A stretch of DNA of 64,000 nt from Raillietiella orientalis (Eukaryota): assembly GCA_036172245.1 (NCBI GenBank), contig JAYWIR010000053.1:124001-188000 (forward strand), given 5' to 3'. The notes beneath the pieces were generated by a model. The model was given only the letters and a program-made list of their open reading frames with translations. It ran no database searches and was not told where the DNA came from. Below are positions 18,359 to 60,006 of the stretch, piece by piece. Every line of letters starts with the position of its first letter. Position 1 is the stretch's first letter. The position numbers were made by a program, and so were the translations under genes.

Positions 18359-18360
18359 TG

Positions 18361-21405: not shown

Positions 21406-21834
21406 AAAACATCAAAGTCCTCCTGCTGTCGGAAGCGCCCGACATTAGAGCACAACTGGTCTACGAGTTGTGTGCGTCGATGCATGCGCGCAACTTGTTG
21501 GCCGATGAAGCCGACGTGACACGCAGAATCGACCACGTGTTACTCGATAACCACCTGTGCACGCGGGTGGGGCCTCAAGGCGCACTTGAGTGCGAGCTGT
21601 CCGATCACCCTCGTCTAGCGTTCATCATTTATCCGCGCGAAAGAGGTCCACCCTCCGAAGCGTAAGGCCTGCCGGGATTCTGGTTGCGACTCCAAGGAGC
21701 GCGCGAATATCTGCGTGCATTCCTGCGTGGGTTCGAACTGCAGACTCTTGTTGACTGGGACAAATTAAAACGCTCAGTCCGAGAGTTCTGCGACTAGTTT
21801 CCCCTTCATCAACTTCCTCCATGATTCGGTGATG
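21406..21834 (+). mobile_element. LINE family C-like ORF2 fragment K (EN end/linker)
   Basis: RAQLVYELCASMHARNLL, IDH, LSDHPRL and FPLHQLPP*FGD. Confidence 0.8.
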
Positions 21835-22440
21835 CCACCCGCATACGCCAGGACGTTTATTAAAAACATTTTTACAGTCAATCCAGAACGTGGTACAAGG
21901 CCCCACTGACATTTACGCAATACCGGAACTGCCAGGACACCGGGACGCAGCCCGGTGTGGCTCTCCTCGGCAGTGGAAGGGGATAGGGAGAAAACAAAAA
22001 TAAAATAAAAAGAGAAAAACAAACAACTAAAAGAGTTTCAGGGCCAGGAAGAGATCACAGACAACTGCTGGAAGGGCTCATCATTTCCAAGATGCCTTCG
22101 AGTTCCATTTCCATTATTCCAAGATGGGGCCATCGAGTAGCTCTCTGCAGCAAGCGAACAGCATACTTGATGACGTCCCTCACGATGCAGTCTTCATCTT
22201 CGGCATCACTCCAGGCCGCCACGATACCACGAATGCAGCAAAATGCTGCCAGGGCTGCGGCTGGACTGAGGGCGTCCCGCACGAAGACAGGACTGTAAAC
22301 GCATCTAACGTTGCCACCATCCCGTATCATAAGGGCCGATTTGAGACGATCCCAAAGAATCCGGATGGCAGGGCAATCAACTGGGAGGTTAGGGAGCTAC
22401 TCCCGCTCCTCACAGCAGGCACACGCAGGATTTACTCTTT
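21835..22440 (-). mobile_element. LINE family A copy A5, 3' piece
   Basis: CCIRGIVAAWSD. The 3' UTR matches 25160-25380 and 34540-34750. Terminus AATAAACGTCCTGGCGTATGCGGGTGG. Confidence 0.82.
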
Positions 22441-22449
22441 CCGCGTCGT

Positions 22450-25159
22450 TCTAGGGAGCAGACGTGGTTTCGCATCGCTCCACGGACTGGTTAGTGAAAA
22501 GCTTTTCGTTGGTTGTCTGGTGTGTGGGAGCACCGGTGTCCCATGACAGAAATGCCTAAGGACACCGAGATGGAAGTTGGAGGAGGAGAAGAAACATGCT
22601 ATCCTCCACCAATAAAAGTTGGCGCGTCCGCCCTTACGGAATCCGGGGCACTTGCCCCATCGGAATCGGGGGCAACCGCCCCTTCGCGACTCTCTTCGCC
22701 ATTGGCGAGGAGTTGGAGTGACGTCGTTGCTGCACCATCCCCGGATGCAGTAGCGGAGCAGACTGGCTACAAGGATAGCGGCTACAAACCGTCTCTGATT
22801 TATAAGGTAAGCAGTGTGTTTGATGAAAAAATTGCACGCTCCTTCGAAATGGAGCTGCAAAGGTTGAACGTGAGAGAGGAAGACCTTGAAGGCCCATCCG
22901 TCCTTATTGGGGGCCAGCGAGTTGAGCTGACATGCAAAGAGGCAAGTCTGGCGCAGCGACTACTGAACACCCCTATTACGGTGGACGGCCGCAGGATCTT
23001 CCCTGTGACGGAGGACCGCTCCGTCGTGGTCCACCTCACAGGTGTTTCACTCCGAAAGGACAAAACCAGCGTCCATGAGAAGTTGTCGAAGCATAGTAGT
23101 GTGCACGCGTATTGGGTCAAACCCAATGTCTTCCGAACGCACGGAAGGCTATTCAGTGGGATGGAAGCAGCCCGCGTCACCCTAACAGAGAATGGTGGGC
23201 TTCCCCACAAACTGAATATCGGCGAAGCAAAAGTCGATGCATGGTACGTGGGTAAGCCCTAGTATTGTGGCCATTGCGATGCTACAGGGCATCTAAAACA
23301 GCGGTGCCCTAACATCCAATGCCACTTATGTGGAAATAAGGGCCACATCCGTAAGGTGTCTCCAAGACGATTAATCACGGTCCCTCCCGCTCCCAAAAAG
23401 GCAAAGGGGAAACGCACGGGAGGAACGCATACACAGAAACAGGCTGCAAACACTCAGATTCCAGTTTCAAAGCCCTCACAGCAAACGTCGGTTGAGAATA
23501 CTCCCGACGACGCTGGTGACGGCGAAGGCCGGCCGACGGCAAAGCCACGAAGAAAACCCGTGAGTCCCGAACGAAACTTCGGTGAAAACAAAAACGCAGC
23601 GCGAAAAACCGTGCCGCGAAAAGCTCCGCGCATGTTCGCTAAAATTAGAGCGTGTGAAGAAAGCCGATGCCGCCACCGGGGGAGCAATCTCCCCCCTCGC
23701 GTTTGGTGAAGTTGCGACGGTCGATGGTGAACCTTCTGGCGAAAGAGAGAAGGAACCGCGCGCCGCGCTCGACGCGATCGAGGAGGCCGCCATCCAGCAG
23801 GTGGTGGAAAAACTCACGGCTGAACTGCAAGGCCGTGAAAAGAACTCGCGAAAAGCCATGCAAGGGCCTGCCGCGAGGAAGTTTCCGGAGGCAGGTGAGG
23901 CAGATCCGGACTTCGAAAGTGCGTCCTCTTCAGCGGAGGCGCCACCAAAGAAGACGGGGCGTAAGTCTCAGAATCCCAGGAGGCGCATCCGGATCAATAA
24001 GGAGGCGGATGAATCGGCCTCCGAGGGGGAAGCCGGCAGCGTGGGAGGCGAGGGTGGGAATATCTCATTCCCCGACACCGTGCAGCTAGCGACCACCATG
24101 GAGGAATATGTGCAGGTGGGTGAACGCCTACTTCCTCTGCAAAGACCTGACGACGAATCGTCCTCCATGGAAGAGGGAGAAGCTGTGCGCGACGCACCCC
24201 CTCCTCCTAGCGTCTGGCAGGAAAAAGTGGCGGGAGCCCCATTGCCAATTTCCCAGGATTAACACCTGGACTCGCCTGTCGCCGTAGGATACGCGTAGCC
24301 TGCTGGAACGTCAACGGGCTGCGCGATCACGGCAACAGGCGGGACACGGCCGACACCCTGCGTGACATCGACCTGGCACTCCTGCAGGAGATCCACGTGA
24401 TCACCACGGAGAACGCCAAGGAGATCGAAAGGATCGCAGAGGTTCGCTGTTTTGGCAATGAGGCGCTCGCAACGCCTGTGGCGTCTCGTTTTTTATGAAG
24501 CCAGCAGTCGCTTCCTTCGTCAAGGACCTACAGGACAGTACAGACGTACGACAAGGACAGTCGGGTTGGCCATCTTATCCTTAGGTGGTCCGACTCGATC
24601 GACCTTGTCGTGACTAATGTGTACGCTCCGAGAGGAGGACGCAGGTACGTGGAACGTTCCCGGTTCCTCGAAACCCTGAAGCGCGACTGGCTGGCGGATA
24701 CAAACGTACGCAAGACACATCTGATCGGTGGGGATTTTAACATCCGCCTGCTCTCAGGTGTGCCTTGCAGGCAAAAAGAAGCAACCAACGAGTTGTGCGC
24801 CGCTATGCGTACGCGCAACCTGCTGGGGGACCTACCGGAAATAGCCCAAAGCGTAGACCACGTCTTCTTTGACGCCGACCTGTGCCCACGGGTCGGCAGA
24901 CGAGGGAAACTTCCGTCGAAGCTATCGGACTACTTCCGGTTGATAATCGAGATTATGCCACGCAAGAAAGGACCACCATCCAGGACGTGGCGTATGCCAG
25001 GCGACTGGACGCGCATCTCCGGTGCGGCGGAACATCTCCGTCAGTTCCTGAGAGGAGTAATCCTCCGCAACCTCGAAAACTGGGACCGCATGAAGGTCTC
25101 GGTCCGCGAGTCCTGCGAGGATTTCCCTTTGCACCGCCTGCCTTGGGGATTTGCTGTTG
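22450..25159 (+). mobile_element. LINE family A-like copy H, 5' piece (ORF1 about 22543-24262, ORF2 EN)
   Basis: 5' motif AGACGTGG..GCTCC, WYVGKP followed by two CCHC knuckles, CWNVNG and GGDFN. Ends at FPLHRLPWGFAV. Confidence 0.85.
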
Positions 25160-28100
25160 CCACCCGGGTACGCCCAAGGCGTTTATTAATAAAAAACTCT
25201 ACAATTGCGGTACCAGGCCCCGCTCACGGCCTTATGCACAAGACCTACCGGGACGCCAAGACGCAGCTTGGCGTGGCACTACCCGGCAGCGAAAGAGGAT
25301 GGGGAAGAAACAAAAGTAAAATTAAAAACGCAAACACACAAAAGAGGTTGGAGGGCAGAGAAGGGATCACTGTTCGCTGAGAAGAGGGCCCATCCTTCGA
25401 AGAAAGCCCTCGACGTCTCTCCGCATATCTCCCAGCTGATGCTATCCGGCAGCTTTCCAAAAGAAGCGTTGGGCATACGGGATGACATCCCTCGCCTGTG
25501 GACCCACTCCTTCGTTGTTGGCGTCGCTCCATGCCGCCACGATGCCACGGACGCAGCACAAGGCTGCGATGGCTGCGGCTGGCTGCAGTGCGTCCTTCAG
25601 GAAGAGGGACCGAAGAACGTCTCTAAGAGTGCTGCCCGTAGGGAGCCCGAGGGTCGTCCCGAACCGTTCCCAAAGAATTCGGAGGGCAGCACAATCCACA
25701 ATAAGGTGGGGAAGCGACTCGCGCACCCCGCACCTGGCACACGCAGGATCCACAGCTTTCATCGTCCAGTGGAAGCGGCGCGCGTTGTAGGGTAGACCCC
25801 AGTGCAACAAAAACAACGCCGACTCTTGCCACTTGAGGGGCAGGATCCTGGATTCCTTCATCACCGGGGGCCACTTCAGCTCATCCCTGAAGATGGCGAG
25901 CAGCTCGCCCCATCTTAATAATCCTCGCGGCTGGTCGCTCGGGTTCGTAACGTCAGCCAGTTCTCCTGTTGTCCAGCCGCTGATTTACTTTTAACGTCCC
26001 TCGATGCAGCAGGAGACTTGCCACCTTGGAGTCCGACTGCTGTGAAGCGCCCTCCTCAGGAAGGGCAGCGCCGTAGCCAGGCAGGTTTTCTCTACCCACG
26101 TGCTTCTAGCTGGATTCTCCAGGAGATTCCTCAGAGTGCAGCGGGCGTAGGGGATGCATCGGAGACGATTCCACGTTACGTGGATTCTCTGGTTCACCAT
26201 TGCCCACTTTCCGAGGTTCTCCTCCAGTCAGGCATAGGAGTTGGCAGAACAGCAAACCATCCAGCTGTTCTCCATGGCCAACGATGCCATGCGTCGGAGC
26301 TGTAGGCCGCATCTTCTGATCTTCCGGCCGATGCACAGAAGAAAAGACGCGAGTCCCTCGCACCCGGACACACGACTGGCAAGGACGCGAGCCGGAATGC
26401 ACCACGGGGTGCTCCACATCTTTGCTGCGATGGCGAGAGTACGCCATCGCATCAGTTTCTCCACGCGCTCCAGCGTCAGAAGGTTAAGTCAGCACTCCCG
26501 ACGAGGAGCGCAAAGGTCCTTCAAAGGGACTCGGGGCCTCTCCTCGCCCCAAAGGGCGATGCGGAGGAGGTCCATTGTCCTCTTTTTCACAACTCCTGCA
26601 GCGGCACAAACAAAAAGCAATGGGCGGAGGATGGGGGACGAAAGGGCGTTCCAAACCGCAGCCCGTTCCGGCAAGTGAAACTTGCCTTCCAGGAACGAGC
26701 GGATCGCCGTCTCGACTTTTTGGAGGCAGCTGGACCACGCTGCCGCAGAGGACAAGTGACCCAACGGAACACCAAGGTACTTGAAGCACCTCGCCGTGGG
26801 AAAGTCCAAACGGTCCTAGTTCTGTTGCCCTGCCTGCGCCGCACCAACTGGCACTATCGACGACTTCGCCCTGTTCACCTGCAGTCCGGTCCCGCGGCTG
26901 AGCAGATCGAAGAAGTCTCCGACCGCCTTTGCCGGGGTGGACATTGGCAACAAGGGCAGAAGATCGTCGGCGTACGCTGCTACGGCGGGCGTGCCGGAGC
27001 ATGAGCTCGGCAAGGGGGCCAATGTCACCCTGTACGCTCTCAGCACCAACTCAAAGTAGGTGCTGAAGAGCAGGGGGCCGAGGCTATCTCCCTGCCGTAT
27101 GCCCCGCCGCCCCGCCACGTCATACACCTTGTGACCACTAAAAGAGACGGTAATCATCGCATTCCGACAGCAAGAGCGCAGGTAGGAAATCAGGGAGGGT
27201 GAGAATCCCATGCAACCCAGAGGCTCCAAGAGGAGTTCCTGGTGTACACAGTAGAATGCCTTGTGGAGATCGAATGCGAGCGCTAGGGCCCAATTCCCCG
27301 CCTATGGGTCCCTTCTTATTCCGGCTGGCGGCCAAAATGTGAGGTTGACGACTTTCCCTATCCCATTCTTGTCTCTTCTCAGCAGGTGCTCCCATGTGCT
27401 TGCAAAGAAGAGGTTGGCATCCATACTTCGTCCGGGAACAGCATAAGTCTGCTCCGGGCTAATAACGGATTCTGCTACCTGCCCAAGACGCGAAGCCCAT
27501 AGCCCTGCTATCAACTTGGCGTCCGTATTCACGATTATGATCGGACGCCAGTTCTTTAAATCCCTGAGGTCTCGCGCTTTCGGTAGGAGCCTTACTTTGG
27601 CTGACCGAAACGAGGCGGGAACATCGCCTTCTTCTCGGTTTCGCCTGATTAACTTAAGCAAGAGGGACGCCAGCTCTTCCGCGGAGCTGTGAAAGCACTC
27701 GGCGGGCAAGTCTTCTTCCCCTGGAGCTTTACGCATCTTGAGAATTTTGATACCGGCGAGAATTTCACGGGTGGTAGAAGGCTCGTCGAGGCTTTCCATC
27801 TCCTGCTCCCCTATTGCCGGGGCTCCATCCGGAAGCAACCGTCGAGAGGCGTCTCGATCCGGGGGCTCCCTGGCGTGAAGAAAGGAATAACAACTCCGCA
27901 CGAGATGCCGTATCGACGCGGAAGACGAACATTCCCGGCCCTGGTCGTCCAGCAAGCTGGCCGATCCGGATTGCCAGGCATGGCGTTCGACGCTGGCGCG
28001 GTACTCTTCCAGGCGACGCACATTAAAGGTCCTCTCGTACCTACGAGCCTGCAAATATGCCCGATGGTTACAATTACCCTCGCCGAATTCAGGGGGCAGG

Positions 28101-28177
28101 CGGTCAAGAGGAAACTGCTCGCGAAACTCCCGGACGAAGGCATTGAGAAGGACCCAATCGGAGAGACTCTGAAGCGT
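25160..28177 (-). mobile_element. LINE family A copy A2, 3' piece (linker, RT, zinc finger, 3' UTR)
   Basis: WRPIIIVNTD, RQGDSLGP, AYADD and CARCGVRESLPHLIVDC, with a hairpin terminus at 25161-25187. Confidence 0.88.
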
Positions 28178-31100
28178 CGAGCGGACGTGTCTTTTCGCTG
28201 CTCCTGAGTTTCATTTCCGTTGGTGCTTGTGTGTGGTGTGGGTGGAAAATTAGGCAGCTACGGAACTAATTTGGGGAAACACGCTAAAGGTCGTTAGGCA
28301 GCAATGCTTGATACCACCACCGGTGGGGATCCAGGGGCGATGATCTCATTCCCCCGGAGGACATAAAGGTGGAAGCTCCCGCATCAGTGGAGGCTCCCGC
28401 CAGCACGGATGCGCCCTTGGCCCTACCCAGGGCTTGGAACGCCGTGGCTGCGGCACCTACGCCAGCAACTATGGCGGCAATGCGCGCTTACCTGGAGGAG
28501 GGGTATAACCCACCCCTTCTATATAAAGTAGGCGGTCTATATTCTCCCGAGTACGCGCTCGCCTTCTCGCAGGCGAAGCGCGTTCTCGGTGTACAAAAAG
28601 AGGAGCTTCTAGCTATGTCCGTCAGAAGCGAAGGTCAGTTTGTGGAAGTTATCTGCAAGGAGGCAACTCTTGCGCAGAGACTTCTGGGAACCCCCGTAAT
28701 TATGGGCAGCCGGTGGCTTCTCCCAATTACTAAAGACCGGTCGGTGACCGGTATCACGTTCCGGATGAGGAAGGAGGCCGTCCGGAACGAATTAGAAAAA
28801 TTTGCAACTTTCCACGCGCTGTGGGGTAAGTCTACTCCTTTTGTTGATTACGACGGGGTGCATGGCGGCCTGGGTGCAGCGCGAGTGACGGTTCGCGAAG
28901 GATGTGAGTTTCCCCACAAACTCACCGTCAACGGTGAATCCGTTGACGTGTGGTACGTGGGGAAACCCAAGTTTTGCGGCTGCTGCACAGCTTTGGCCAC
29001 CTTAACATGAGGTGTCCGAACGTGCAGTGCCAGCAATGCAAACAAGCTGGGCACACCCTTCTGGTATGCCCCCAAAACACAGTCCGCGTCGTGTCCGCAA
29101 AACACGCGAGAAAGCGCGCGGCTAAAAAAAGGAAGAAGCTGGCAGCTCGTGCTGCTGCTAAGGGAGTCACCTCCGTCACCAAGGCGAAGGCCAGCCCCGA
29201 GACTTCGGCGAAAAACGCCGCAAAGTTCGAGGGCGAGGGTCAAGAGCCAGGGTGGCAGAAGGTCGACCTCAAGAAAAACTCCTCTAAGTACGGAAAGTAC
29301 CTGGCAAAACGGAGAGAAACCGCTCTGCGCCGCAAAAACACCAAAAGCTGCTACGTCGTCGTAGAGCGGATTCCCGCCATCGACGAATGCGGCGCTAAGG
29401 AACTCGCTGCTGCCTCTGCTCAACCCTTTGTTGACAAAGTCAACAAGGAGGGGAGCGAGTCGGCAGCGTCCGTCATCGCGCCCACGCTCGATGACGTCTC
29501 CTTCGAGCGCGCCGAGGAGGAACTGGCTGCCTCGTTGCAGCCGGCCGCCCCCAAGGCTGGCAAGAAGTCCGTCAGGCGTCCGGCTTCCCCTCAGGAGTCG
29601 GCCACTCGCGACCTCTAGGTGAAGCCCGGAAAACAGCATCCATCTCCTCGGCATCCCGCAAAAAGGCAGGACGAAAGTCCACAATGCCCCGGAAGATCGT
29701 CTCCCCCGACGAAGAAGAAGAGATGGCTTCCGGCTGCGAGGGTGCGATGAGCGTGGGAAACTTCCGTTACCCATCGCCCGAGAGAAACCCACGCTCCGGC
29801 ACGGAGGAGATGGAAGGGGTGGAGGTCGAACAGGTGCCGTTGTTACCTGAAGAGGCCTCCGTCCCCATATACATCCCGAACACCTGCCCCGCGGCAGGTA
29901 GTGCAGCGCCACCTCCCCAGCAATAAAGCCGGGATTCGCCTCCAGTCGTCGTCTGCTGATCGCCTGCTGGAACGTCAACGGGCTAAGCAACGACGGCACG
30001 AGGCGTGACTTGCGTCACCCTGGCATCTTTCGACCTGGTGCTGCTGCTGGAGATCCACGTGATCTCCGCAGATCAAGCCCGGGAGATCGAACGGATCTCG
30101 GGTGGTCGGCTGCTGTGGCGCTGCGGTACCGCGAAATCTAGCGGTGTCGCCTTCCTGCTCCGACTAGCCATCGAGGCCGCAATAAAGGACGTACGGTTTG
30201 CTGACGCCGGTCGCGTCGCTCAGCTGACTCTCAGCTGATCCGACTTAATCGACCTGGTCTTCACCAACCTCTACGCTCCTAGCGGTAAGGACGCGTTGAG
30301 GACGAAGGCAAGAAGAGAATTCTACCTTGCCCTCGGACGCGATTGGCTGATCGAAGCAAGTGTTCGCAAAGCGCACCTGATCGCAGGTGACTTCAACCTG
30401 CGCCTGCTTTCAGGTGCGCCCCATACACTGAATGAACGCGTCAACGAGTAGTCCGCGCAAATGCACACGTGCAACTTGCTGGCCGGAGATACGGACATGA
30501 AACGAAGCATCGATCACGTGTACCTTGACCAGCACCTATGCTCTCGCGTGGGCAGGCGCGGCAAGTTACCGTTCGAGCTGTCGGACCATGGCCGAATCGT
30601 GTTCGAAGTGCATCCGCGCGACAAGGTCCCCCCCTCGTCAGCGTGGCGTCTGCCAGGGGACTGGCAGAAGTTCCCGGACGCGGCGGAACATCTCCGCGCG
30701 TTCATACGGAACTTCAGGATGCGGACGCTTCAGGACTGGGACCGCTTCAAGCGGTCGGTCCAGGAGTTCTGCGACCGGTTCCCTTTGCATCGCCTACCTG
30801 CGGGATTTAAGGAGGGGCCGCGTAACGAAAGGTACTATCTTCAGGACCGACGTTACGCGAGAGCCCTCGACATGCGCAGGTTAGCAGAGTATCGAGCGGG
30901 AGCCGAGAGGCAAGCCTGGCAATTTAAGTCGGCTAGCTTGCCAGACGACCAGGGCCGGGAGCACTCAACTCCTGCTCAAAAGCGCGGGATTGTTAAGAAA
31001 TTTTACTCCTCCCTGTACGCCAGCGCGCCTCCGGAGCGAGATGTCTCACGACTTCTGCTTCCGGAAGGTGCTCCAGCGATCGGAGAGGAGGAGAAAAGAA

Positions 31101-33250
31101 GCCTCGACGAGCCTTTCACGATGGACGAGATCCTCTCCTCCATCGGTAAGCTCAAGAGACGGAAGTCTCCATGGGAGGACGGCCTGCTCGCGGAGTTTTA
31201 CCAAACATTCGCGACAGAGGTTACCCCTCTGGTACATCAGCTCACCTTGCTGATTCGCGAGACAGGTGACGTTCCACCTCGTTTCGTTCAGCGAAGGTGC
31301 GGCTCCTCCCGAAGGGAGGAGACCTTAGGAGCATGAACAGCTGGCGTCTCATCACAATAGTGAATGAGGACGCCAAGTTGATAGCCAAGATGTGGGCAGA
31401 GGGTCTATTACGGGTTGCTAACATCTTCATCAGCCCGAAACAGACTTATGCTGTTCCCGGGCGGAGCATAGAGGCGAATCTGTTCCATGCTTCAACATGG
31501 TTAGAGCACAAATAGGAAGGGGCTTATTGAGCAGCCGGAATTCCGGTGCGTCCGTTGGCGGGAGACGGAAAGGTCGGGTGGGGAAGGGAGCCCTTGGGGC
31601 GCGGTCGACTTGCGTGAAGCATTCGACAGCGTCGACCAGAATCTCCTGCTGGAGCTTCTGGAACGCTTGGGCTTCCCGGCCTTTTTGATGGCCTACCTGC
31701 GCTCCAGCTGGCGTAACGCGCCAATTAATGTTCTTTTCAGGGGGCAAACCGTGCACGGAGTACCGGTGCGACGCGGCATACGGCAGGAAGACAGCCTGAG
31801 CCCCCTGCTCTTTATCGCCTTTTTCGAATTGGTGCTAAGAGCGTACAGGGAGACTGTAACGCACCTGCCCCGCGACTGTCCCGGTACGCCTGCGGTTTCG
31901 GCATACGCGGACGATCTTCTGCTACTGCTCCCTATGTCCACCCCGGCTTCGGCGGTCGAGGAGTTCTTCGACCTGCTGCATCGGAGAACCGGACTTATGG
32001 TGAACAGGACGAAGTCGTCCGTAATGCCAGTCGGAGCGGCGTGGGCAGGGCAGCACGACTGGTTCCGTTTGGGGATCCCCACGGTGAGGTACATCAAGTA
32101 CCTTGGTGTGCCGTTGGGGGAATGCTCCCCTGCGAAAGCGTGGTCCGGCTGCCTTCAGAAGCCTCAGGCGGCGATCGGCCGGTTCCAGGATGGGAGGTTC
32201 TACCTGCAGGAACGGGCCGCTGCGTGGAACGCGTTTGCGGCACCCCTCCTTCGCCCCTTGCTTTTTGTTTGCCCCCACCCAGCTGAGTCTAAGAAAAGAA
32301 CGAATGACCTCCTGTGGATAGCCCTTTGGGGCAGAGGGAGGCCTTGAGTCCGTCTCGTGGACTTGTGCGCTTCGCGTCGGGACGGCGGTCTTGGCCTCCT
32401 GACCTGGAGCGACTGTAGCTTCAGCTCCAGTTCCGGAGTGTTTCCTTTATGGCAAAAAATTGGTGCAACGCCTGGTGCCTCCCTGCACGTCTCCTCGTCG
32501 AGCGGGCCACCGGCAATGCGGGACTGTCGTCCTACTTTGCGCACCGAAGCCCCATCTGCCACTGCGGACTTCAGCTTCGAAGGGCGGCCAAGCTCGTGAA
32601 GACCAACTCGGAGCGGACCCTCGTACGCCCCGCGAACGGTCCTGCCTGGTTGCAGGAAACCGTCCGCACGTGGCCGATGACTCATGAGCAGAGCCCGCAA
32701 CACGAGCGAATAGCTCTGTTGGGGCCTCACGCACACCGCACGCTCCGAGAAGTCTTCGAGGATCCCCGGAGGAGAGCGTGGGCTTAAAGAACCTCACTTG
32801 CTGCGGTACTGCCTACCCTACGGAAACATCTGGGCAGCAACGTCGCGGCACAATGGGAGGTTACTGTGAAGATCGCCAGCAGGGCAATGAAGATCGGAGA
32901 CTGGAGAACGGGTCAGCTCACCAACGCTGCGACCCCGAGGGCCACTGCACACGGACTCTTGCGCTGGGGAGAGCTACTGGATGTTCCGGAGGAACATCTA
33001 GAGTGGCTCCCGGTGCTCATGGACTCGCGCACCCTCTACATAAAGTGGCAACAGTCGGCACTCCTGGTGTTGCATTGGGGCCTCCCCTGCAACGCCCGCC
33101 GACACCACTGGATGCGTGGGGGTGTCAACCCCAATTGTGTCAGGTGCGGGGAGAGGGAATACCTCCCCCACCTGCTAGTGGAATGTGTTGCCCTCCGTCC
33201 CTTGTGGGAACGCTTTGCCGCAGCCCTGGGTATACCCGGAGGCAACGTAA
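28178..33250 (+). mobile_element. LINE B-related copy B2, nearly full length, 3' end deleted
   Basis: 5' motif GGACGTGTC..GCTCC, frameshifted ORF1 about 28300-29926, and ORF2 with SAYADD and CVRCGE..H..C. Confidence 0.87.
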
Positions 33251-34523: not shown

Positions 34524-34538
34524 GGGGATTCGGCGTTG

Positions 34539-36644: not shown

Positions 36645-36655
36645 CGCTCTAGGGT

Positions 36656-36677
36656 GGACGTGTTTTCTCGGTGCTCC
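36656..36677 (+). promoter_or_regulatory. Conserved 5' motif GGACGTG...GCTCC, candidate internal promoter (representative copy)
   Basis: Recurs near the 5' end of nine copies. Promoter function is inferred. Confidence 0.55.
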
Positions 36678-36739
36678 TCGTACCAGGAAGTCTCCCTTTG
36701 TGCAAGCGTCGTGTATTTCGGTGGTCGATAAGGCAGCGA

Positions 36740-38400: not shown

Positions 38401-38414
38401 TCTTCCCAGCAGTA

Positions 38415-42181: not shown

Positions 42182-42212
42182 AATAAACGCCCCGGCGAAA
42201 TCCGGGTGAAAA
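42182..42212 (+). terminator. 3' terminal AATAAA + GC hairpin (representative copy)
   Basis: AATAAACGCCCCGGCGAAATCCGGGTGAAAA. Variants occur at 14 element ends. Confidence 0.7.
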
Positions 42213-46078: not shown

Positions 46079-49000
46079 CACACCCGGATGTGCCGGGGCA
46101 TTTATTTCTTAGAAATAAAATAACAGAAAAAATGTCGCGTGGCGAACCCGAAGGTTCACCACTCCAAAACAGCTTGCTGGTTACCGGCTCCGTGCCGGAG
46201 AGGTCCTTCCGATGCGCGGGGATGGGAAATAAAGAAAAACAAAAAGAAACAAAAAGTTCAAATGTGGGGGGGAACAAATGCTGTAGAGGTGGGAGGGCGG
46301 GGAAGGGATCACGGTGCGCGTGGAGAGGTCCTCTAGATCCTATTCAGGATCCGCACAAGCTGAGTCCTTTCAGCGCCCAAGTGGCGCCACTTGCAGACAC
46401 TTCGCGCGAACACGCGAGTCCAGTGTAAGGCGTTGCCGGTTGGCTGACGCCTTCTTCTGGTGGCGTTCCAAGCCGCCACTATTCCTCTGATGCAGCAGAG
46501 GACTGCTACACTAGCGGGCGGGGACAAGGCGTCACTACAGAAGAGGCGCCTGAAAACGTCCTTTGGGCCGCATCCGCGCAAGTCCAGGATCGCCGCGAGA
46601 CGATCCCATAAAGGGCGGATGGCACTGCACTCGATGAGAAGGTGGGGGAAGGTCTCTTTTTCCCCGCACCGGTCACAATAAGGATCCACAGCCCCCCGGG
46701 TTGTGTGATGAAGGCGTGCTTTGAATGGAAGTCCCCAGTGGACCACAAGCAACGCCACATCCTGTTATTTCAGGGGGAGGGATGCACTCTTCCAGGACGC
46801 TGGGGGCCACTTCATCTCCTCCGGAGATAGTCCGAGTAGCTCGCCCCAGCGTCGAATTCCGTTGGGCGGGACACTCGGCGTCGCAGCGTCAGCTGGCTGC
46901 CGAGATGTCCACGCCTTTATCGATTGTGTCCTGCCGCCTATAGTGCAGGACACGGTCCATTTCCCCTGCTCGCTACTGTCCCTGGCATTCACAAGGAAGG
47001 GCAGCACTGGGGCGAGGGGGGTTATCAAGGCCCATAGAAGCTTGTCGTGGGACTGCACGATCTCCTGCAGCGTCCAGCGGGCGTGCCTGTTCATACAAGT
47101 GTTCCTTGTGCCCGCCGGAACGTGGATCTTTACCCAGGTGGAGACTGACTCGTGCAACCAGGCGGCGTAGTTCCCTGGGAGGCAGGAGATCCAGGCGTTC
47201 TTTTGAACCGCAACAAAGATGCGTCGCAGCATAGAGCCACAGTATGGTCTTCTGCAGACGCGCGCAGACAGAAACGACAAAAGTCCGCCGATTCCGCAGG
47301 CTCGTTGGGCCAGGAGGCGTGCTGGAACGCACCAAGGCGTGTCCCACAATTCTGCCGCAAGGGCGAGAGTCCTGAATCGAAGTTGTATTTCGATACGCTC
47401 CAGCGTAAGTAAGCCAAGTACACCGTCCTTACGTGGAGCGCACAAGTCTTTGAGCCTCACACGGGACCTCCCTTTGCCCCAAAGGACTGTCCTCAGGAGG
47501 CCCGCTGCTCGTTTCCGAATAAAATAAGGGGCGGGGCAAACAAAAAGTAGGGGGCGAAGGAGGGGAGCCGCAAACGCGGTCCACACCGCGGCCCGTTCCT
47601 GCAAGTAGAACTTGCCTTCTTGGAACGGACCGATCGCAAACGCTGCCTTTTGGAGACGGTCGGACCAGGCTTCTGCTGCGCAGAAGTCCCCCAACGGTAC
47701 GCCGAGGTACTTGAAGCACCTGCCCGTGGGGATCCCCAAGCGGATCCAGTCCGACCGTCCAGCCCACGCCGAAACGACGAAGACCATGGATGACTTCGCC
47801 CTGTTCACCTCCAGGCCCGTCCCGCGGCGCAGCAACTCGAAGAAGTCCTCGAGTGCACTCGCCGGGGTGGACCCGGGAAGCAGCAGCAGAAGATCGTGTG
47901 CATAGGCCGACACGGCAGGCGTGCCGGCACACGAGCTCGGCAGGGTTGCCAGAGTTACCCTGTATGCCCTCAGCACCAACTCGAAGTAGATGCTGAAGAG
48001 CAAGGGGCTCAGGCTGTCACCCTGCCGGATGCCGCGGCGTCCGGGCACGCCGTACACGTGCCGGCCGCTGAAACCGATATTGATTGACGCGTTGCGCCAG
48101 CAGGAGCGCAGGTAAGATTGAAGCACGGCAGGGAAACCCATGCGTTCCAGGCGCTCCAGAAGGAGATCCTGGTCGACGCAGTCGAATGCTTTGTGCAAAT
48201 CGACCGCGACGGCAAAGGCTCCCGCCGAGTCCATCCCACCCTCTGCCCGATCTTCTTGGTCAGAGGGGGGCGCGAGGCTCCCTTGACCGTCCTGTGCAAC
48301 GCGTTGTCGCAACTGCCACCATGAGCTGGCGAGTAGCAGGTTGGCCTCCATGGTTCGTCCGGGAACAGCATAGGTCTGCTCGGGACTCACCACGGAAGCG
48401 GCCACCCGCCCCAAACGCTCAGCCCACAACTTGGCATACAACTTTGCGTCCGCATTCACTACTGTGATGGGACGCCAGTTGCCAATGTTGCGTAAGTCTC
48501 CTGACTTCGGCAGGAGACGTACTTTAGCTGACCGGAACGAGGCGGGAACTTCGCCGTGTTTGCGGATCAGCGCACTTAACCTGAGCACCAGGGGGGCCAG
48601 CTCTGGCGCGAAGCGATGGTAAAACTCCGCGGGCAGGCCGTCCTCCCCTGGTGCCTTCCTTCTCTTGAGCCTGTTGATGGCGGAGATGATCTCCGCCATC
48701 GTGAACGGTTCCGCCAATCTGGAACGGTCCTCCTCCTTGAGCGCGGGAGCGCCATCCGGCAGCAGCCGCTGCGCGAAATGGCGCTCAGGTGTTAGTGGCG
48801 CGTACAAGGAGGAATAAAACTCCCGCACGATGCGGCTTACCTGGGCTGGGCTGGAGCGTTCTTGGCCCTGATGATCCAGCAGGCAGGCCGAGCCTGACTG
48901 CCAGGCCTGCCTCTCCGCCTCAGCCTTGAATTCAGCCAGGCGACGGACGTCGGGACGCCGGGAATAACGGCGCGCCTGTAGGTACGCCCGCTCGTTCCGG

Positions 49001-49962
49001 ACACCCTCACCGAAGCCCGGCGGAAGACGTTCCAGGGGAAACTGGTCGCAAAACTCACGGACTGAGCACTTCATTTCGTCCCAGTCCGCAAGCGTGTGAA
49101 GCTGGAATCCTCGCAGGAAACAGCGTAGATGTTCCGCCGCTCCTACGAGGCGCAACCAATCCCCTGGCAGGCGCCATGTTTTCAGGGGAGGGCCCTTATT
49201 GCGCGGATGTAACTCGAGCACGAGCCGTGGATGGTCGGACAGCTCTGCCGGGAGCGTTCCTCGAGTTCCCACCCGCGTGCACAGGCGGTTGTCGAGGAAC
49301 ATGTGGTCGATGTTCCGATCTCTCCCGGCATCGCCGGCCAACAAGTTGCGCGCATGCATGGCTGCGCACAACTCGTTGACCAGCTGTGCTCGTCCGCTGG
49401 GCGCACCTGCCAGCAGGCGGAGCTTGAAATCGCCCGCAATGAGGTGCGCCCTTCGCACGCCTGCTTCGGCCAACCAGTCTCGCCGCAAGGTTTCGAAGAA
49501 CGCAGTGCGTTCCTCGGCCCTGTGGCTGCTCACCGGAGCGTACAGGTTCGTGACTACGAGGTCGATCGAGTCGGACCACTTGAACACAAGCTGCCCAACT
49601 CGACCATCCCCGTCGAACCGTGCATTGCGCAGTGAGTTGTCGACGGTTGGCTTTAGCAGAAAGGCCACTCCGCAGGAGTTGTCCGTTCCGTTCCTCAACA
49701 GTAGCCGCCCTCCCGCGATTCTTCCGATTTCCTGGACATCTCCCGGTCGGAGAACGTGCGTCTCTTGCAGGAGCACCAGGTCGAAATCTCGCAGTATGGC
49801 GGCTACATCTCGCCTCTTTACGTCGTCGCGCAACCCGTTGACATTCGAACAGGTGATGCGCAAGCGGCGGCAGAAGGCGAGCCCACGCACTGATGCGTTT
49901 ATTGTGGGGTGGAGGCGGCCTCCTCCCTTGCGGAGCACCACAAAAGCACGTCCACCCTCTCA
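46079..49962 (-). mobile_element. LINE family C copy C1, ORF1-less, flanked by 14-bp direct repeats
   Basis: The 5' motif lies about 60 nt from the ORF1 stop. GGCGGCGGGTTGTT occurs at 46065-46078 and 49963-49976. Confidence 0.88.
46333..49890 (-). pseudogene. C1 ORF2 (EN-RT-zinc finger), longest open ORF2 in the window
   Basis: Open for more than 1000 codons. YADD has become YAHD, and TGG has become TAA at 46765 relative to C2. Confidence 0.9.
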
Positions 49963-49976
49963 GGCGGCGGGTTGTT

Positions 49977-50793
49977 CACACCCGGATGTGCCGGGGCATT
50001 TATTTCATAGAAATAAACTAACAGAAAAATTGTCGCGTGGCGAACCCGAAGGTTCACCACTCCATAACAGCTTGCTGGTTACCGGCTCCGTGCCGGAGAG
50101 GTCCTTCCGATGCGCGGGGATGGGAAATAAAGAAAAACAAAAAAAAAACAAATATTTGAAGTATGGGAGGGAGCAAATGTTTCGGGAATGGGAGGGCAGG
50201 GAGGGGATCACCGTGCGGGCGGATAGGTCCTCTAGATCCTATTTAGGATCCGTACAAGCTGAGTCCTCTCTGCGCCCAAGTGGCGCCACTTGCAGACGTC
50301 TCGGACGACTAGGCGGGTGAACCGTAAGGCGTTGCCAGTTGGCTGACGTCTTCTTCTGGTGGCGTTCCAAGCCGCCACGATCCCTCGAATGCAGCAGAGG
50401 ACTGCTACAGAAGAGGGGGGGGACAAGGCGTCACTACGGAAGAGGAGCCTGAAAACGTCCTTTGGGCCGCATCCGCGCAAGTCCAGGATCGCCGCGAGAC
50501 GATCCCACAAAGGGCGGATGGCACTGCACTCGATGAGAAGGTGGGGGAAGGTCTCTTTTTCCCCGCACCGGTCACAATAAGGATCCACAGCCCCCCGGGT
50601 TGTGTGATGAAGGCGTGCTTTGAATGGAAGTCCCAGAGGACCACAAGCAACGCCACATCCTGCCATTTCAGGGGGAGGGATGCACTGTTCCAGGACGCTG
50701 GGGGCCACTTCATCTCCTCCGGAGATAGTCCGAGTAGCTCGCCCCAGCGTCGAATTCCGTTGGGCGGGACACTCGGCGTCGCAGCGTCAGCTA
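49977..50793 (-). mobile_element. LINE family C copy C2, 3' 0.8 kb
   Basis: Near-identical in blocks to 46079-46893, with the same terminus. Confidence 0.88.
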
Positions 50794-54222: not shown

Positions 54223-55416
54223 ACGACAACGCTGCATTCTTTAATTTGCTCGCTTGCCTGCTGTTTTTTCTGGCGGTACGCGAGCTTTTTGTCCATCCTC
54301 CTCTCCTTCTTTGGTTTTTGGCTGTAGCCAACTGCCACCCAGGCTCCTGGCTTGTTCCCTCGACTTGTTCGGCGTTGTTCGCCGGGATCTCGGGTGCGGC
54401 CTGGGCCTTGGGCGCGGGTGGCACAGCCTTGGCGGCATCTTTCGCCGCCAGCCTTCTCTGCAGAAGCCATGCACGTTTTTAAAGGTATCTCTAGGAAAGC
54501 ACCCGCACTGCTGCTTTAGGGCACACCTCCCTCGTGTGTCTCATGGTTGCGCATACTTGGCACTGCACATTAAGACACCTCTTTTTGATGTGGCCCGACG
54601 TATTGCAGAAGCCACATTATTTCGGTTTCCCCACATACCAGAGGTCGACGGTTTCGCCTTCGACCACCAGTTTGTGAAGAAGAGTGCAGTTCTCATAAAC
54701 GGTCACGCGCGCAGCAGTAAGGCCGTGCTGCAGCCCCGTGTAGTCCTAGAAAGGACTAACTTTCGTCCACTGCGCGTGGACCGTTCCAAATTTTCTAGCG
54801 CGGCGCGAACCTGTTCCTTGCGCATTCGCGCGGTACCACCTAACAGGTGGACCACCATGCTGCGGTCCGCCGTAATAGGGAGGAGCCTGCGCGTCCTTAT
54901 CACCACGGGGGTTTGAAGCTGTCGCTGGGCCAGCTCTGCTTGTTTGCAGATGACCTCAACGTACTGACCCCCGCTGCGGATGGTCATAGCGCTGAGCTCC
55001 TCCTCTTTCACCTCGAGAGCGCGCATGCCCTTCGAAAAGGCGCGCGCGTTCTCTAAAGAATATAAATTGCTTACTTTGTAGAACAATGAGGGGTTGTACT
55101 TCTCCTCTACATACTCCGACAATTCCGCCGCGGCTGCAGGCGATGGCGCCGACACAACGGCGCCCCACGCCCGCGCTGCAGGGGGACCGATTCTGTGGGG
55201 GCGCATGCCCCCACTTCCATCGCCTCCGGGGGCGACGTTGCCGCCTCCCCCTGGCTCTCCATCGCCTCTGGGGGTGGCGTTGCCGCTGCTTCCTGGCCGT
55301 CACTGGTGTTCGCGTCATGGATCGCTGCCTGATCGACCACCGAACCACACGACGCTTGCACTGGGGGAGACTTCCTGGCATGAGGAGCATCGAGAAAACA
55401 CGTCCACACTAGAGCA
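54223..55416 (-). mobile_element. LINE family B copy B', 5' piece (5' UTR + ORF1)
   Basis: Colinear with 36645-37845. Starts TGCTCTAGTGTGGACGTGTTTT. Confidence 0.9.
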
Positions 55417-57470
55417 CGCAAAGCGTTCGACTGCGTGACTCAGGATCTCCACCTGAAGCTCCTGGTACGCCTCGGTCTGCCGGTGAACCTCGTGGCCTCT
55501 TTGCGCGCCTGCTGGCGGCATTCGCTCAATTTTATTTCTTTTAGCAGCTGCCACGTGTACGGCGTGCCGGTGTGCCAGGGCGTCAGGCAAGGTAAAAGCT
55601 TAAGCCCATTGCCCTCTAGAATCTTCTTTGAGTTGGTGCAGAAGGCGTACAGGCTGACGCTGTATAACCTGGAGAGCTTTTGTCCAGAACGCCGTCCGCG
55701 GCTTTCTATGCTGACGGTCTTCTTCTCCTTTTACCCATGTCTTCCAGTCTCGCGGACTTCTTCGAGGTGATTCGCCGGGGACTGGGCGTAAGCGTAAACC
55801 GGAGCAAGAGCGTGGTCGTTCCTATTGGTACGGCGTGGGAGGGGCAGTCCTTCTGGATCCACCTGGGGATCGCGACTGCTTTCTCCATTTTATATCTAGG
55901 CGTTCCACTGGGGAACATCAGCTTAGTGGAAGTGTAGTGGGACGTTTTCGGAAGGCTACGAGTGCACTGCGCCCGTTCTGCCATGGCAGGTTCGGGCCGC
56001 GATATGGAACACTTTCGTTGCCCTCCTCTTGCGCTTCCTGTTTTTTCTTTGCCCGCCATCAGACTCGGCGAAGCTTCAGGCGCACACCCTGTTGACGAAT
56101 GGACTGTGGGATCCTGCGCGGTCCAGGTTCCGCCTGAAAGTCTTGGCGGCTCCGCGTCGGGATGCTAGCTTAGGCATCCTGACGCTGGGGAGAATCGAAC
56201 TGCTGGTGCAGCTTCGGATGTTGGCCCTGTGCGCCAACCTTTGTTTCACCACGTGGTGCGCTCCTGCGCGCCTGCTCCTGCGGCAATGTACCGGCAGCAA
56301 TGAACTTCTGTCGCTGCGACCGCACACGTAGCGCTCCACGAGTAGCTTCGGTTTCCCGTTTGAACCACTCTACCGGCATTTGGCAGCCCAATCATGGATC
56401 TCCTGCCGTTCAACGAACTCTGATTCCTGGTGGCAAAAACCGTTGCATGGCTGGGAAAAGCACCAGGGTGTTTCTCTCCTGGATCTTCGTTGCATTCACC
56501 TCTTCCCGTACTGCTCGGTGGATGAGGAGTTCAACAGCCAGGAGAAGTGTACTCGCCTGGCCGTCACGCCCCTCGCCGACGCGCTGTCAGCCCTCAGAGC
56601 AAGAGATGACAGCTGCGAACCGGCGAGATGGGAGGTCGCCTGCACCGTCGTAGGAAGAACACGACCTATTGGCGGCTGTAGGACTTGCGAGCTGGCAGAC
56701 GCCGCAACGCCTCCCCACATCCCGAAGGGACTATTTCGATGGAGTTAACTCTTGAGTGTGGCCCCCGAAGAACTTGTGGTCCCTCCCTTCTATATAAACA
56801 CTTCTGTGTTCTCCCTTTAGTGGAAGCAGTACGTCATCATACTGCTGCATTGGGGTTTTCACTCCAACCAGCGGACGAACCTTGTTTCCGGAAGAGTTGT
56901 CTCCCCAAACTGTAAGCGGTACGAAGAAGTGGAAACACTCCCGCACCTGCTACTGGACTGCGGTGCTCTCCTAGGAGAGTGGCGGAGGCTGGCCTCAGCT
57001 CTTCTGCACCAGGGGGACACCACGAGAGACTTGATGCGCCGCTTCTTTACGCCAGGCGTCTTTGGGTAATGTCGTTGCAACCGTGTGTTGCACCCGCGCC
57101 ATCCAAAAGGCTCACCGAGAGTTGGAGACGCTGGCCAACCTTCGTCAGCACACCGGATTAGCCAGCACAAGCATGTCGTCGGCTGCCGAGTGGGCTCAAC
57201 TGCCACAGGACGTAAGGAGAGAGATCGCCGGCATCCATCGCTGGTTTTGAAAGAAAGGAACGGCGTTACCAAAGTCCGCTGTCTCCGGCCCTTCATATTT
57301 TCATTTTTTTTATAGTAGTGTATTTGTGGTCCCCTCTCTTCCTTTCCGTACTTTTGGCATACCGACCTGCGTGTCTGGGATCTCACCCCCTTCGTCTCTT
57401 GTTTTTTAATTTTTCCAAGAACTCTGTACCTTGATAGTTTCTTAATAAACGCCTTGGCGCACCCGGGTGA
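55417..57470 (+). mobile_element. LINE family D copy D3, 3' piece starting at RKAFDC
   Basis: RKAFDCVTQD, degenerate RT and zinc finger. Terminus AATAAACGCCTTGGCGCACCCGGGTGA. Confidence 0.85.
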
Positions 57471-57473
57471 TGA

Positions 57474-59498
57474 ACAGTTCGTACCCCGCGATGGTCTCGT
57501 TCTCCTGGACCTCTGCCGCGGTGTTAACGTGGATCTCTCGAAGCAGGCTCAGGTCGAGTTCACGCAGGGTGTCGGCCGTATCTCGCCTGTTACCTTGGTC
57601 GCGCAGCCCGTTGACATTCCGCGACGACTGTCGAGCCCAGGTGCTACTCCTGGAAAAGTTGCAGTACGGCGTCCGTCACCTGCTGGGGCGGGATGCTATG
57701 TGGAGGAGGAGGGTTATGTGCTCAAGGCACCTGGTCCCCCTCCTCCATGGGTAACGGCTCGTCGAGCGGGTCACACGCAGTTGGGGTCGCGCCTACCGGT
57801 TGGCTCTCCTCCATGGGGGCGGGCTGTTCAGGGTCGGCGCCTGCAGGAAGGACTTCACCCACCTGCTCACCCTCCTCCATGGGGTGGCCAGCTCGACGGC
57901 TTCCGAGCGTGGGAGTTCCCCCTCCGGGAATCTCACGCTTCCGCTACCTTTCTGCTTCTCCTCCTCTCTGGTGGAGGGCAGGCGCCTCCTGGGCTTCTGG
58001 GGCTAGCGTCCCGACTTCCTGGTGGGCGCCTCCGCGGAGGAGGACGAACTTCGGTCCCCCAGGTCGCATTCACCTGCAGGGGCCTTCTTTGCTGGAGCCG
58101 GCCTTTGCACGGCCTTGCGCGGGAAGTTCTCACGCTCCTCCGGCGTGGCCGCGAGCTCCTCCGCCGCCTGCGCGTAGGCAGCGTCCTCGCCGGCGGCGAG
58201 CGCTTCGCGAGGCCAACCCTCTGTTTGCACAGAGGGTTCGCCGTCGCGAACCTCGGGCGCGCCAGAAACGGCGAGGGGAGGCTCGTCGCTCCGGGTGGCA
58301 GCCTCGGGAGCGATGACGAGTTTCGGTGCTAGCTAGCACTCGCGGAAAGTTTTCGATCGCGTACAGGGTTTCTTTGTTTTCGCGATCTTCTTTTTCCCTG
58401 CTTTCTCCGGTTCTTCGTTGGAACCCTTCCTCTCTTTTCTGGCTTTTACAACCTGCCAGCCTACTTAACCTTCTTATGCTTGGTACGGTTGTTCCTCCGA
58501 ATTTTGCGCCGGAGGTTGAGGTGCTGGCAGCTTCTCCCGTCCACTTTCTGCCTTCGGTCTTGCGACCTTTAATGCGCGTTTCCCCTGCGCTTTTTTGGCG
58601 GCAGGAGGAAGCGGGGTGGGGCGCTTGGGGCACACGCACCGAACGTGACCTCGTTCTTCGCACAGGTAGTACTATATGTTCGGATACCTTTTGCGTAGGT
58701 GTCCTACTGTGTTACAGTGCCCACAGTAGCGTGGTTTTCCCACGTATCAGAGGTCTACGGCTTCCTGGGAGAACTCGAGCTTGTGAGGTAGCGCTCTACC
58801 CTCCTTCACGGTGACACACGCTGCGGCCTGGCCCCCGAAAACGCTATTGTAGCCCTCAAAAATAGAAGCTTTAGGCCTCAGCTCGTGAACCTCTCCGAAT
58901 TTTTTCAATTCCTCACCAACCGCAGACCACATCATGCGGCTGGTGATGCCGGTCCGATGCACCACTACGGAGCGGTCCATCGTGACTGGTAGGATCTTGC
59001 GCCCATCCCTGTCCAGCGGGGTGGTGATCAGACTTTGCGTCAAGTAATTTCCTTACAGACAACCTGGACCCGCTGACCCCCGCTAAGCACGGAGAGGCCG
59101 TCACGATCCTTTGCTAAAAATATTGGCGTTCTGCAGCGCTTTCGTGAAGGCGCGTGCAGTTCGCCCTTAGAAAAGCTTGCCTTCCTGGTAGAGTAGCGAA
59201 GGTTCATAACCCGCTATCTTGTAGGCTTCCATCTCGGTCATGGCTTTCGCGCTAGGCGCGGCACCCATGGCTCTCCAACTCCTCGCCTTGCGCGGAGAGG
59301 GCGATTCCGGGGATGATGGCCCTGTTCCATTTGGCTGTGGGGGAGTACTAGCCTCCCCCACGCTTACATTAAGCGCAGTGTTCTCTGGCATCGTCGCCAT
59401 CGGACACCGGCGATGTGTGAAAACACGAATACTAGCAAAGAAACTCTCTCCAAGCCTGGCTGACGAAGCGTGAAAAAAACACGTCTGTACTCGACGAG
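57474..59498 (-). mobile_element. LINE family A copy A4, 5' piece (5' UTR, ORF1, first codons of EN)
   Basis: AGACGTGTTTTTTTCACGCTTC 5' motif. ORF1 is homologous to 33251-34449 and 43924-45058. Confidence 0.85.
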
Positions 59499-60006
59499 TG
59501 GAATCTGGGGACCGGGTCCGCAACGAAAATTCGTATTTGTATGCCCGTGGTTACGCGAAGAAATCAACGTACGTCGCTTGGCAGAATACCGCGTCGAGAC
59601 AGAGAGCGAAGCCTGGCAATCCGGGTCGGCCAGCTTGCTGGACGACCAGTGCCGGGAACACATATCCCCGGCGTCGGTACGGAATCTCCTGTTGTGCTAT
59701 TATTCCTCCCTTTATGCGAGACCCCCCCGGTACGAGACGATTTTTGGCGCTTGCTTCCAGATGCTGCCCTTGTAATAGGGGAGGAGGAGAAGTTGAGCTC
59801 CGACGAGCCTTCTACACCGGCAAAATTCTCGCCGGTAACCAAAGGCTCAAGAGGCGTTAAGCTCCTAGGGAGGACGGCTTGACCGCAAATTTTCTCCAGT
59901 GCTTAGCGGAAGAACTGGCACTTTCGGTGCTTCAGTTGACAAGACTGATACGAGACGAAGACTTTGGGCAGCCAAGATAAACCACAGGAGCAACGAAACG
60001 TTGATG
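59499..60006 (+). mobile_element. Degenerate LINE ORF2 fragment J (linker, then deletion to C-terminal region)
   Basis: VRNENSYL, WQSGSASLLDDQ and AEELA, then WAAKINHRSNETL. Confidence 0.75.

Follow-up and report, generated by a model that had tools for sequence, protein, structure and literature searches.

A probable target-specific L1-like element inserted at a conserved coding motif of related LINEs in Raillietiella orientalis

Introduction

Why should several copies of one long interspersed nuclear element (LINE) end, on the same strand, at the same base of the coding sequence of other LINEs? The question is raised by a 64,000-nucleotide (nt) stretch of the Raillietiella orientalis genome (NCBI GenBank assembly GCA_036172245.1, contig JAYWIR010000053.1, positions 124,001 to 188,000 of the forward strand), hereafter the window, in which a lineage that we call family A adjoins the codons for the motif L-P-x-G-F-G-x-G (the GFG codons) in the second open reading frame (ORF2) of host LINEs. 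The known targets of site-specific LINEs are ribosomal DNA (rDNA), telomeres, small RNA genes, microsatellites and a DNA transposon. We conclude that family A is likely to be a target-site-specific, L1-like non-LTR retrotransposon (LTR, long terminal repeat) of the apurinic/apyrimidinic endonuclease (APE) type, and that its site is formed by the GFG codons of other LINEs' ORF2. Within this window, the data support a new class of target for a site-specific LINE, namely a conserved coding motif of related LINEs.

Results

Family A ends at the GFG codons of opposite-strand LINEs

Self-comparison and a map of ORF2 indicated that the whole 64-kb window is made up of nested, diverged L1-like LINE copies on both strands, with a G+C content of ~58%. 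In Pfam, the long ORFs of the window matched the APE-type endonuclease (EN; Exo_endo_phos) and the reverse transcriptase (RT; RVT_1), and a CCHC knuckle was found upstream of one ORF2. One copy, X1 (46768–49959, minus strand), has an uninterrupted ORF2 of 1064 residues, which served as the ruler for residue numbers in all copies. The motif reads LPPGFGEG at residues 312–319 of X1 and, since it lies upstream of the stretch that aligns to human L1 ORF2p, is located in the linker between EN and RT. Among solved structures in PDB, human L1 ORF2p was the best match (E 4.5e-45, compared with 3e-14 for R2), which is not to be read as a clade phylogeny.

The initial annotation had proposed that family A targets this linker motif in antisense orientation and exactly to the nucleotide. 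Family-A 3′ ends are found at 21835, 25160 and 34539, all on the minus strand, and 3/3 fall on the same base of the plus-strand host codons. As had been reported, TGATTCGGTGATG ends at 21834, GGGGATTTGCTGTTG at 25159 and GGGGATTCGGCGTTG at 34538, and CCACCC follows directly after each; when read on the minus strand, the same junctions give AATAAA, a short GC hairpin and GGGTGG, that is, the 3′ end of an element. We aligned the codons with those of the nine LINE copies in the window whose GFG site is present and uninterrupted (at 11413, 18035, 28174, 30659, 39149, 43195, 49161, 61805 and 62434). The three junctions share one register, in which the second Gly codon is split after its first base (GFGx G/GT, with the slash marking the junction). 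At this point the uninterrupted X1 reads GGC TTC GGT GAG G/GT GTC, whereas host K reads TGA TTC GGT GAT G/CCACCC, host H reads GGA TTT GCT GTT G/CCACCC, and the tag at 34524 reads GGA TTC GGC GTT G/CCACCC. For the 3′ ends, nucleotide-exact antisense insertion is thus what we observe.

The first junction joins the left half of host K (plus strand, 21413–21834), which was delimited by tblastn and the site alignment, covers ORF2 residues ~174–321 and ends ...LPP*FGD, to A1 (minus strand, 21835–22443). The latter is the 3′-terminal ~600 nt of family A, consists of 3′ untranslated region (UTR) only, and is cut off at the 5′ end of host H. Directly before the A1 3′ end lies the 15-nt target tag of K (21820–21834, plus strand; CATGATTCGGTGATG), in frame with the host ORF. 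The left half of host H (plus strand, 22447–25159) extends from a 5′ end with GACGTG through the ORF1 region to ORF2 residue 321 (...LPWGFAV), and its last 15 nt constitute tag T1 (25145–25159, plus strand; GGGGATTTGCTGTTG). Two parts of A2 follow on the minus strand: a 3′ part (25160–28171) with the hairpin terminus, the 3′ UTR and ORF2 residues 1064 back to 287, and a 5′ part (33455–34523) that reaches the full-length 5′ terminus, with GACGTGCTTTT 13 nt from the end. Tag T2 (34524–34538, plus strand; GGGGATTCGGCGTTG) then forms the left flank of A3, which is likewise split on the minus strand. Part 1 of A3 (34539–36644) comprises the 3′ terminus, the 3′ UTR and ORF2 residues 1064 back to 589, and part 2 (42215–45048) comprises ORF2 residues 593 back to 12 together with part of the ORF1 region with its CCHC knuckle; the GFG site of A3 itself is uninterrupted. 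The A-lineage ORF at 42173–43975 matched the Pfam EN profile at E 1.6e-11 but, being cut off at residue 593, gave only a weak match to the RT profile (19.8 bits vs a curated cutoff of 29.6); in A2 and A3, the RT region was located by tblastn. An intact endonuclease is found in only two copies of the window, A3 part 2 and X1.

Every LINE 3′ end found in the window, whatever its lineage, carries AATAAA, a short GC hairpin and GGTG (for example at 25160–25187, 42182–42208, 46079–46106 and 57444–57470), which identifies the family-A 3′ ends as true termini rather than internal breaks. An alignment of 12 ends gave a consensus hairpin of 5 pairs with little covariation. The 3′ poly(A) that characterizes the L1 group was absent from all 12 ends examined (12/12), where AATAAA, hairpin and GGTG are followed by at most 4–5 A. 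At the other end, full-length 5′ ends of the superfamily have GACGTGYTTTT 10–15 nt from the terminus; a search of the window with one mismatch allowed returned 8 matches vs 2.5 expected, 6/8 of them at element 5′ ends. That such termini are common to lineages only 45–60% alike in their 3′ UTRs suggests conserved elements for RNA recognition and promoter function.

Both full-length 5′ ends of family A (2/2), at 34523 in A2 and 59498 in A4, adjoin the same GFG codons, and both 5′ flanks begin 2 nt before the first Gly codon of GFG. A4 (minus strand, 57471–59498) is the 5′ 2 kb of family A, with the full-length 5′ terminus, the ORF1 region and ORF2 to residue ~88. After 59498, the plus strand reads TG GAA TCT GGG GAC CGG GTC CGC AAC GAA, or (E)(S)GDRVRNE, and continues as ORF2 residues 317–468 of the right half of host J (plus strand, 59499–59975), in which the GFG codons are degenerate. 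The distance from CACGTC to the tag is equal in A2 and A4, as had been noted at the outset, but it amounts to 13 nt and not to 12. Likewise, the A4 5′ end does adjoin the degenerate codons of J with host ORF2 continuing beyond them, as had been claimed, but its exact placement is less secure: A2 and A4 cannot be aligned over their first 13 nt and the J tag agrees with the tag at 34524 at 7/15 bases only, so that the A4 5′ register is good to ~±3 nt, short of proven exactness.

All five informative family-A termini in the window are therefore situated at the GFG codons of an opposite-strand host LINE, and four different A copies occupy a single site, in each case opposite in strand to the host ORF. 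By our own estimate, which is not the result of a tool, a second random hit on a ~5.5-kb LINE would match the first in both base and strand with odds of ~1 in 11,000.

Host sequence, a putative target duplication and the origin of the tag

The value of these junctions depends on what the tag is. In both K and H, the tag continues 150–430 nt of host ORF in frame and without a gap relative to the uninterrupted copies, with K reading ...EFCD*FPLHQLPP*FGD and H reading ...SCEDFPLHRLPWGFAV into the tag. The ATG at the end of the K tag is matched by AATG in E8, a relative of K. We therefore read the tag that precedes CCACCC in K and H as host sequence.

The initial annotation had itself raised the alternative that the short tag is part of the element's own 3′ end. 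In its wider form, this explanation holds that the 13–15-nt tag is element-borne, either as a 3′ tail or as donor flank read through into the RNA, and that the likeness of the flanks is consequently uninformative about the target. It would account for the tag that separates the 5′ end of A2 from the 3′ end of A3, where no host surrounds it, and for the same layout in the X lineage, in which an identical 14-nt string precedes both tandem copies. It could also draw on the B lineage, where the bases AAAATCGAA look element-borne and mimic the target, and on the tag ends (TG, TTG), which differ from the commonest host form, AGG. However, an element-borne tag would hardly extend hundreds of nucleotides of host ORF in K and H with neither gap nor frame change, nor would it be expected to end like E8 in K, and even then the upstream host sequence would still put both insertions at a homologous site. 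We regard this explanation as improbable, though slightly less so than those considered below.

As had been claimed, T1 and T2 agree at 12/15 positions; the GTT codon that they have in common is found in 0/9 uninterrupted copies. The tag at 34524–34538 is best read as the right-hand copy of a 15-bp target duplication made by A2 in host H, with T1 as the putative left copy, and A3 as a further insertion at the same site. This is the only pair from which a fixed length of duplication can be taken (15 bp, 12/15 identical), and the 3′ junction of A4 is beyond the traceable stretch.

Independence of the insertions

In a tree of 600 nt of 3′ UTR, A1, A2 and A3 form one clade (support 98/98), separate from B1 plus B4 (100/100) and X1 plus X2 (100/99). 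A tree of the hosts, based on ORF2 residues 174–321, places H as the sister of the uninterrupted A3 part 2 (100/99) and K with the uninterrupted X1 and E8 (93/93); a clade of K and H was rejected (log-likelihood difference 35, approximately unbiased (AU) test p 3.3e-6). Identity is 58% between K and H, 70% between K and X1, and 71% between H and A3 part 2. LINEs do not excise, and because the interrupted K and H are each nearer to an uninterrupted copy, they represent separate hits. At least two hosts of different lineages were thus entered, one of A's own lineage and one of the X1/E8 lineage. Host J lies inside the A clade (100/99) and therefore differs from K; possibly the left half of H and the right half of J are one host, given that both are in the A clade, but their tags agree at the 7/15 positions mentioned above. 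Since it overlaps A3 part 2 as well as the 5′ part of A2, A4 must be a fourth copy.

These data bear on the possibility that there was a single ancient insertion and that a composite of host and family A was afterwards copied by segmental or tandem duplication, the register being inherited rather than targeted. A single BLAST alignment does span both junctions (21773–22431 vs 25098–25749, 67.8%), A2 and A3 are arranged in tandem and are 83–85% alike, and deletions and rearrangements are known in the cluster. Nevertheless, copies of one composite should not have hosts that are 58% alike and each closer to an uninterrupted LINE, against a K+H clade rejected as strongly as it was, nor does the composite explain A4 as a fourth copy. 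Furthermore, the differences between A2 and A3 number 63, 43 and 96 of 476 at codon positions 1, 2 and 3, respectively. This third-position skew indicates that part of the divergence arose while both were coding elements under selection, which argues for two insertions and not for one that was duplicated; we hold to this last point less firmly, as CpG effects could add to the skew. Taken together, duplication of a composite seems a poor explanation, and slightly less credible than an element-borne tag.

Other lineages at other exact sites

Family A is not the only lineage in the window with a precise site. The B lineage is found antisense at the RT motif (V)DLHKA(F/L), with two 3′ and two 5′ junctions (36633–36656, 42203–42226, 55408–55431 and 63403–63426). 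B1 (plus strand, 36645–42214), a full-length LINE inserted antisense in A3 at HKA(L/F) with a ~11–12-bp duplication, AACGCCTTGTG, has both its junctions in A3, while the 5′ end of B3 (55419) and the 3′ end of B4 (63415) adjoin the HKAF motif in two other hosts. The bases beside the B hairpin that mimic the target are common to B1 and B4, and part of the B flank may be carried by the RNA. The E5-type lineage has two 3′ junctions at one base near residue 378, antisense, in hosts E4 and E7: E5 itself and an AT-rich element with its end near 61500 both stop exactly 19 nt from the host sequence GAGCATT. This third exact site (18340–18390 and 61470–61530) is occupied by two elements of different composition, the AT-rich one being in a stretch of 45% G+C (60000–61500).

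The proposal that different families have partitioned distinct target sites in a shared LINE body is therefore borne out inside the window, with B at HKAF and the E5-type elements near residue 378, and by analogy the LINE body may be seen as a shared and partitioned niche, as 28S rDNA is for R1 and R2. The idea that aim is taken only at a region (a LINE cluster or centromere-type chromatin), with the common base due to a loose endonuclease preference and chance, fits a window that is LINE-in-LINE throughout, the loose GTT-type ending of nicked-strand ends in many lineages, and the related D1 and E2, whose ends in the endonuclease region (residues ~88 and ~79) do not share one base but are separated by ~24 nt, but we consider it very unlikely in view of three 3′ junctions that agree in base and strand, together with two 5′ ends in the same codons, at ~1 in 11,000 per extra hit by the same estimate, and of the equal precision reached independently by the B and E5-type lineages.

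Apart from the observations cited in favour of the three alternatives, several others weigh against the site specificity of family A. The sample is limited to four A copies from a single 64-kb window, none of them intact. The junctions H/A2, A2/tag and tag/A3 all belong to one locus, and the 5′ junctions of A1 and A3 are not visible, since the H 5′ end adjoins A1 and A3 breaks at 45048 without a tag. To these must be added the poor agreement of the J tag. Compared with the 13-nt core GGATTCGGNGNNG, the tag of K has 1 mismatch and that of H has 2; with ≤2 mismatches allowed, this core has 91 matches in the window vs 84.6 expected by chance, from which it follows that the short motif alone is too loose to explain the specificity. 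Either a longer context is read by the element, or the tags have decayed since insertion. Finally, the RNA may have carried a read-through copy of the tag, in which case the position of the nick would be uncertain by up to 15 nt, with the site unchanged; in R1 and R2, read-through flank aids priming.

Proposed mechanism of insertion

In target-primed reverse transcription, the first nick falls in the strand on which the flank runs into the complement of the element's 3′ end. The sense strand of the host carries this layout at the family-A junctions, and the nick can accordingly be placed after GGATTCGGNGNNG. We propose that the family-A endonuclease would nick the host sense strand after GFGx-G (5′-GGATTCGGNGNNG, cut at its 3′ end), and that the freed 3′ OH would prime reverse transcription at the 3′ end of the RNA, which has no poly(A) and ends in AAUAAA, a 5-bp GC hairpin and GGGUGG. 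Recognition by the RT of the 3′ end of its own RNA is a property of stringent-type LINEs, and the AAUAAA-hairpin-GGUG(G) end would be the likely handle by which the family-A RT chooses its own transcript. A cut in the second strand 15 bp upstream would then produce the 15-bp target duplication. Because such a duplication rebuilds the site, tandem pairs would follow, and a second copy landing beside the first would yield the arrangement A2-tag-A3. The orientation, the site, the structure of the terminus and one duplication can be read from the window; it is from these that we infer the nick, the priming and the second-strand step.

Discussion

The target duplication made by R1, which is of the APE type, is short and fixed. 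With R1 and R2, which occupy the 28S rDNA of arthropods alongside further lineages, the window shares the presence of several non-LTR lineages that each have a base-exact site in one conserved multicopy sequence, as well as precise junctions and the lack of a long poly(A). Unlike R1 and R2, however, the elements described here have as their target the coding body of LINEs of the same superfamily, their own lineage included, rather than a cellular gene, and each insertion in the window disables a relative.

A second parallel is Tx1L of Xenopus, which sits in Tx1D. Tx1L resembles family A in being an L1-group, APE-type LINE specific for a sequence inside another mobile element, but its target is a DNA-transposon-like repeat, whereas that of family A is a conserved codon block of a related LINE. 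In the available text of one survey, rRNA genes and transposons are among the targets of site-specific non-LTR elements, the APE-type site-specific elements lie in the R1 and Tx1 clades, and there is no description, for the Tx1 clade, of a guild in which sister lineages keep to separate sites within one element (PMC4640811).

Insertion of LINEs into their own kind has precedents. According to the accessible portions of the sources, the Zepp and ZeppL LINEs of green algae pile into their own copies (PMC8226300, PMC3446292), as does CNL1 of Cryptococcus, which is R2-like and not APE-type and whose "precise sequence specificity remains undefined" (PMC12810828). These elements resemble those of the window in their nested or tandem insertion into existing copies, represented here by the pairs A2-tag-A3 and X1-tag-X2. 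In the same portions, neither a base-exact ORF2 site, nor a fixed antisense orientation, nor a partition among lineages is described for Zepp, ZeppL or CNL1. Zepp carries poly(A), unlike the window elements, which end in a hairpin and GGUG; the likeness noted here is one of cluster form. More generally, in the parts of the open full-text literature that were covered, with subscription literature outside the search and a prior description therefore possible, there was no account of a base-exact site in a relative's ORF2, of a fixed antisense orientation, or of sister lineages dividing one LINE body.

Searches for relatives of the window elements gave few leads. A protein search returned 15 matches, one of them close (64% identity, unnamed) and the others at ≤32% identity, and the ESM Atlas yielded generic EN+RT clusters only. 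Profile scans that covered contigs from metagenomes, prokaryote genomes and viruses did not confirm any relative, and a DNA pattern of the common 3′ terminus found 11 metagenome loci, with LINE similarity in 0/11. Rfam and tRNA scans of the window were empty, and no ribozyme was detected by them at the 5′ ends. One public run covers 0.06 of the stretch, with 674 matching short contigs, 25 of them at ≥99%; nothing was drawn from it on the family-A junctions.

If our reading of family A is correct, it would represent a new kind of niche, in which LINEs are parasitic on LINEs, their own lineage included, and would provide a mechanism, at the level of sequence, for the growth of LINE-only clusters by nested and tandem insertion. 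Such clusters include some that have been proposed as centromeres in some algae. It would also imply an arms race with little room for the target to escape by mutation, since a protein motif that is needed is encoded there. Moreover, changes of specificity could be studied in a natural series of several related APE endonucleases, each with its own exact site in the same 5.5-kb target, and the specificity of APE endonucleases also bears on programmable insertion tools.

A broader interpretation, which we put forward tentatively and to which we give somewhat less than even chances, is that of a closed guild: four or more sister LINE lineages would have no home but each other's copies, and every one of them would have evolved a base-exact, mostly antisense site in a different conserved codon block of the ORF2 of its relatives. 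The sites of such a guild would be the endonuclease region, the GFG linker, the vicinity of residue 378 and the RT motif HKAF. An insertion would in each case put a competitor out of action and rebuild the inserting element's own target, while purifying selection on the host proteins would block escape of the target. In a bolder form of this idea, the element's RNA, being homologous, would help to choose the site by pairing with the antisense strand of the host, which would explain the antisense rule.

Further features of the cluster

Some junctions do not conform to the exact sites. B2 (plus strand, 28172–33250) is a LINE nested in A2, with its 5′ end at A2 residue ~287 and an ill-defined 3′ end; ~1.5 kb of A2 is missing (junctions at 28165–28180 and 33250–33455), and B2 is either off-site or rearranged. 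The same applies to P, which adjoins K in the sense orientation at residue ~174. A3 part 2 is joined at 45048, without a tag, to an unrelated EN fragment (45040–45060). Deletions or insertion-linked losses have reshaped the cluster, and a clean nested parse of the whole was not achieved, the nest extending past the window. Twin priming, or 5′ inversion, was considered and rejected as the source of an inverted LINE piece, which lies beyond the 3′ end of the element and is a different copy.

X1 and the 5′-truncated X2 are arranged head to tail (46079–50792 for the pair), in sense orientation, in the ORF1 region of another copy, and each is preceded by the identical 14-nt string GGCGGCGGGTTGTT (46065–46078 and 49963–49976). 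Their host is the CCHC-knuckle ORF1 region of a further minus-strand copy (45055–46064 and from 50793 onward). X1, for all its intact ORF2 of 1064 residues, lacks both an ORF1 and an ATG close to its 5′ end.

The full-length 5′ end of H (~22447) adjoins A1 within the best-conserved block of the A 3′ UTR, GCACACGCAGGAT, which is invariant in A1, A2 and A3 (22436–22470); this may be another fixed site or a mere point of truncation. The first part of the window (1–10027) is occupied by a distinct LINE family, with an ORF2 27–28% identical to that of X1, in two head-to-tail copies that are 92% alike: 1–4388 matches 5638–10027, and at 4388/4389 one copy's 5′ end directly adjoins the AATAAA-hairpin 3′ end of its neighbour. 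The youngest pair in the window, by a wide margin, consists of a 719-nt minus-strand fragment at 14538–15256 and the part of B1 to which it is 97.5% identical (37860–38578), a likeness suggesting that the B lineage was recently active or recently duplicated.

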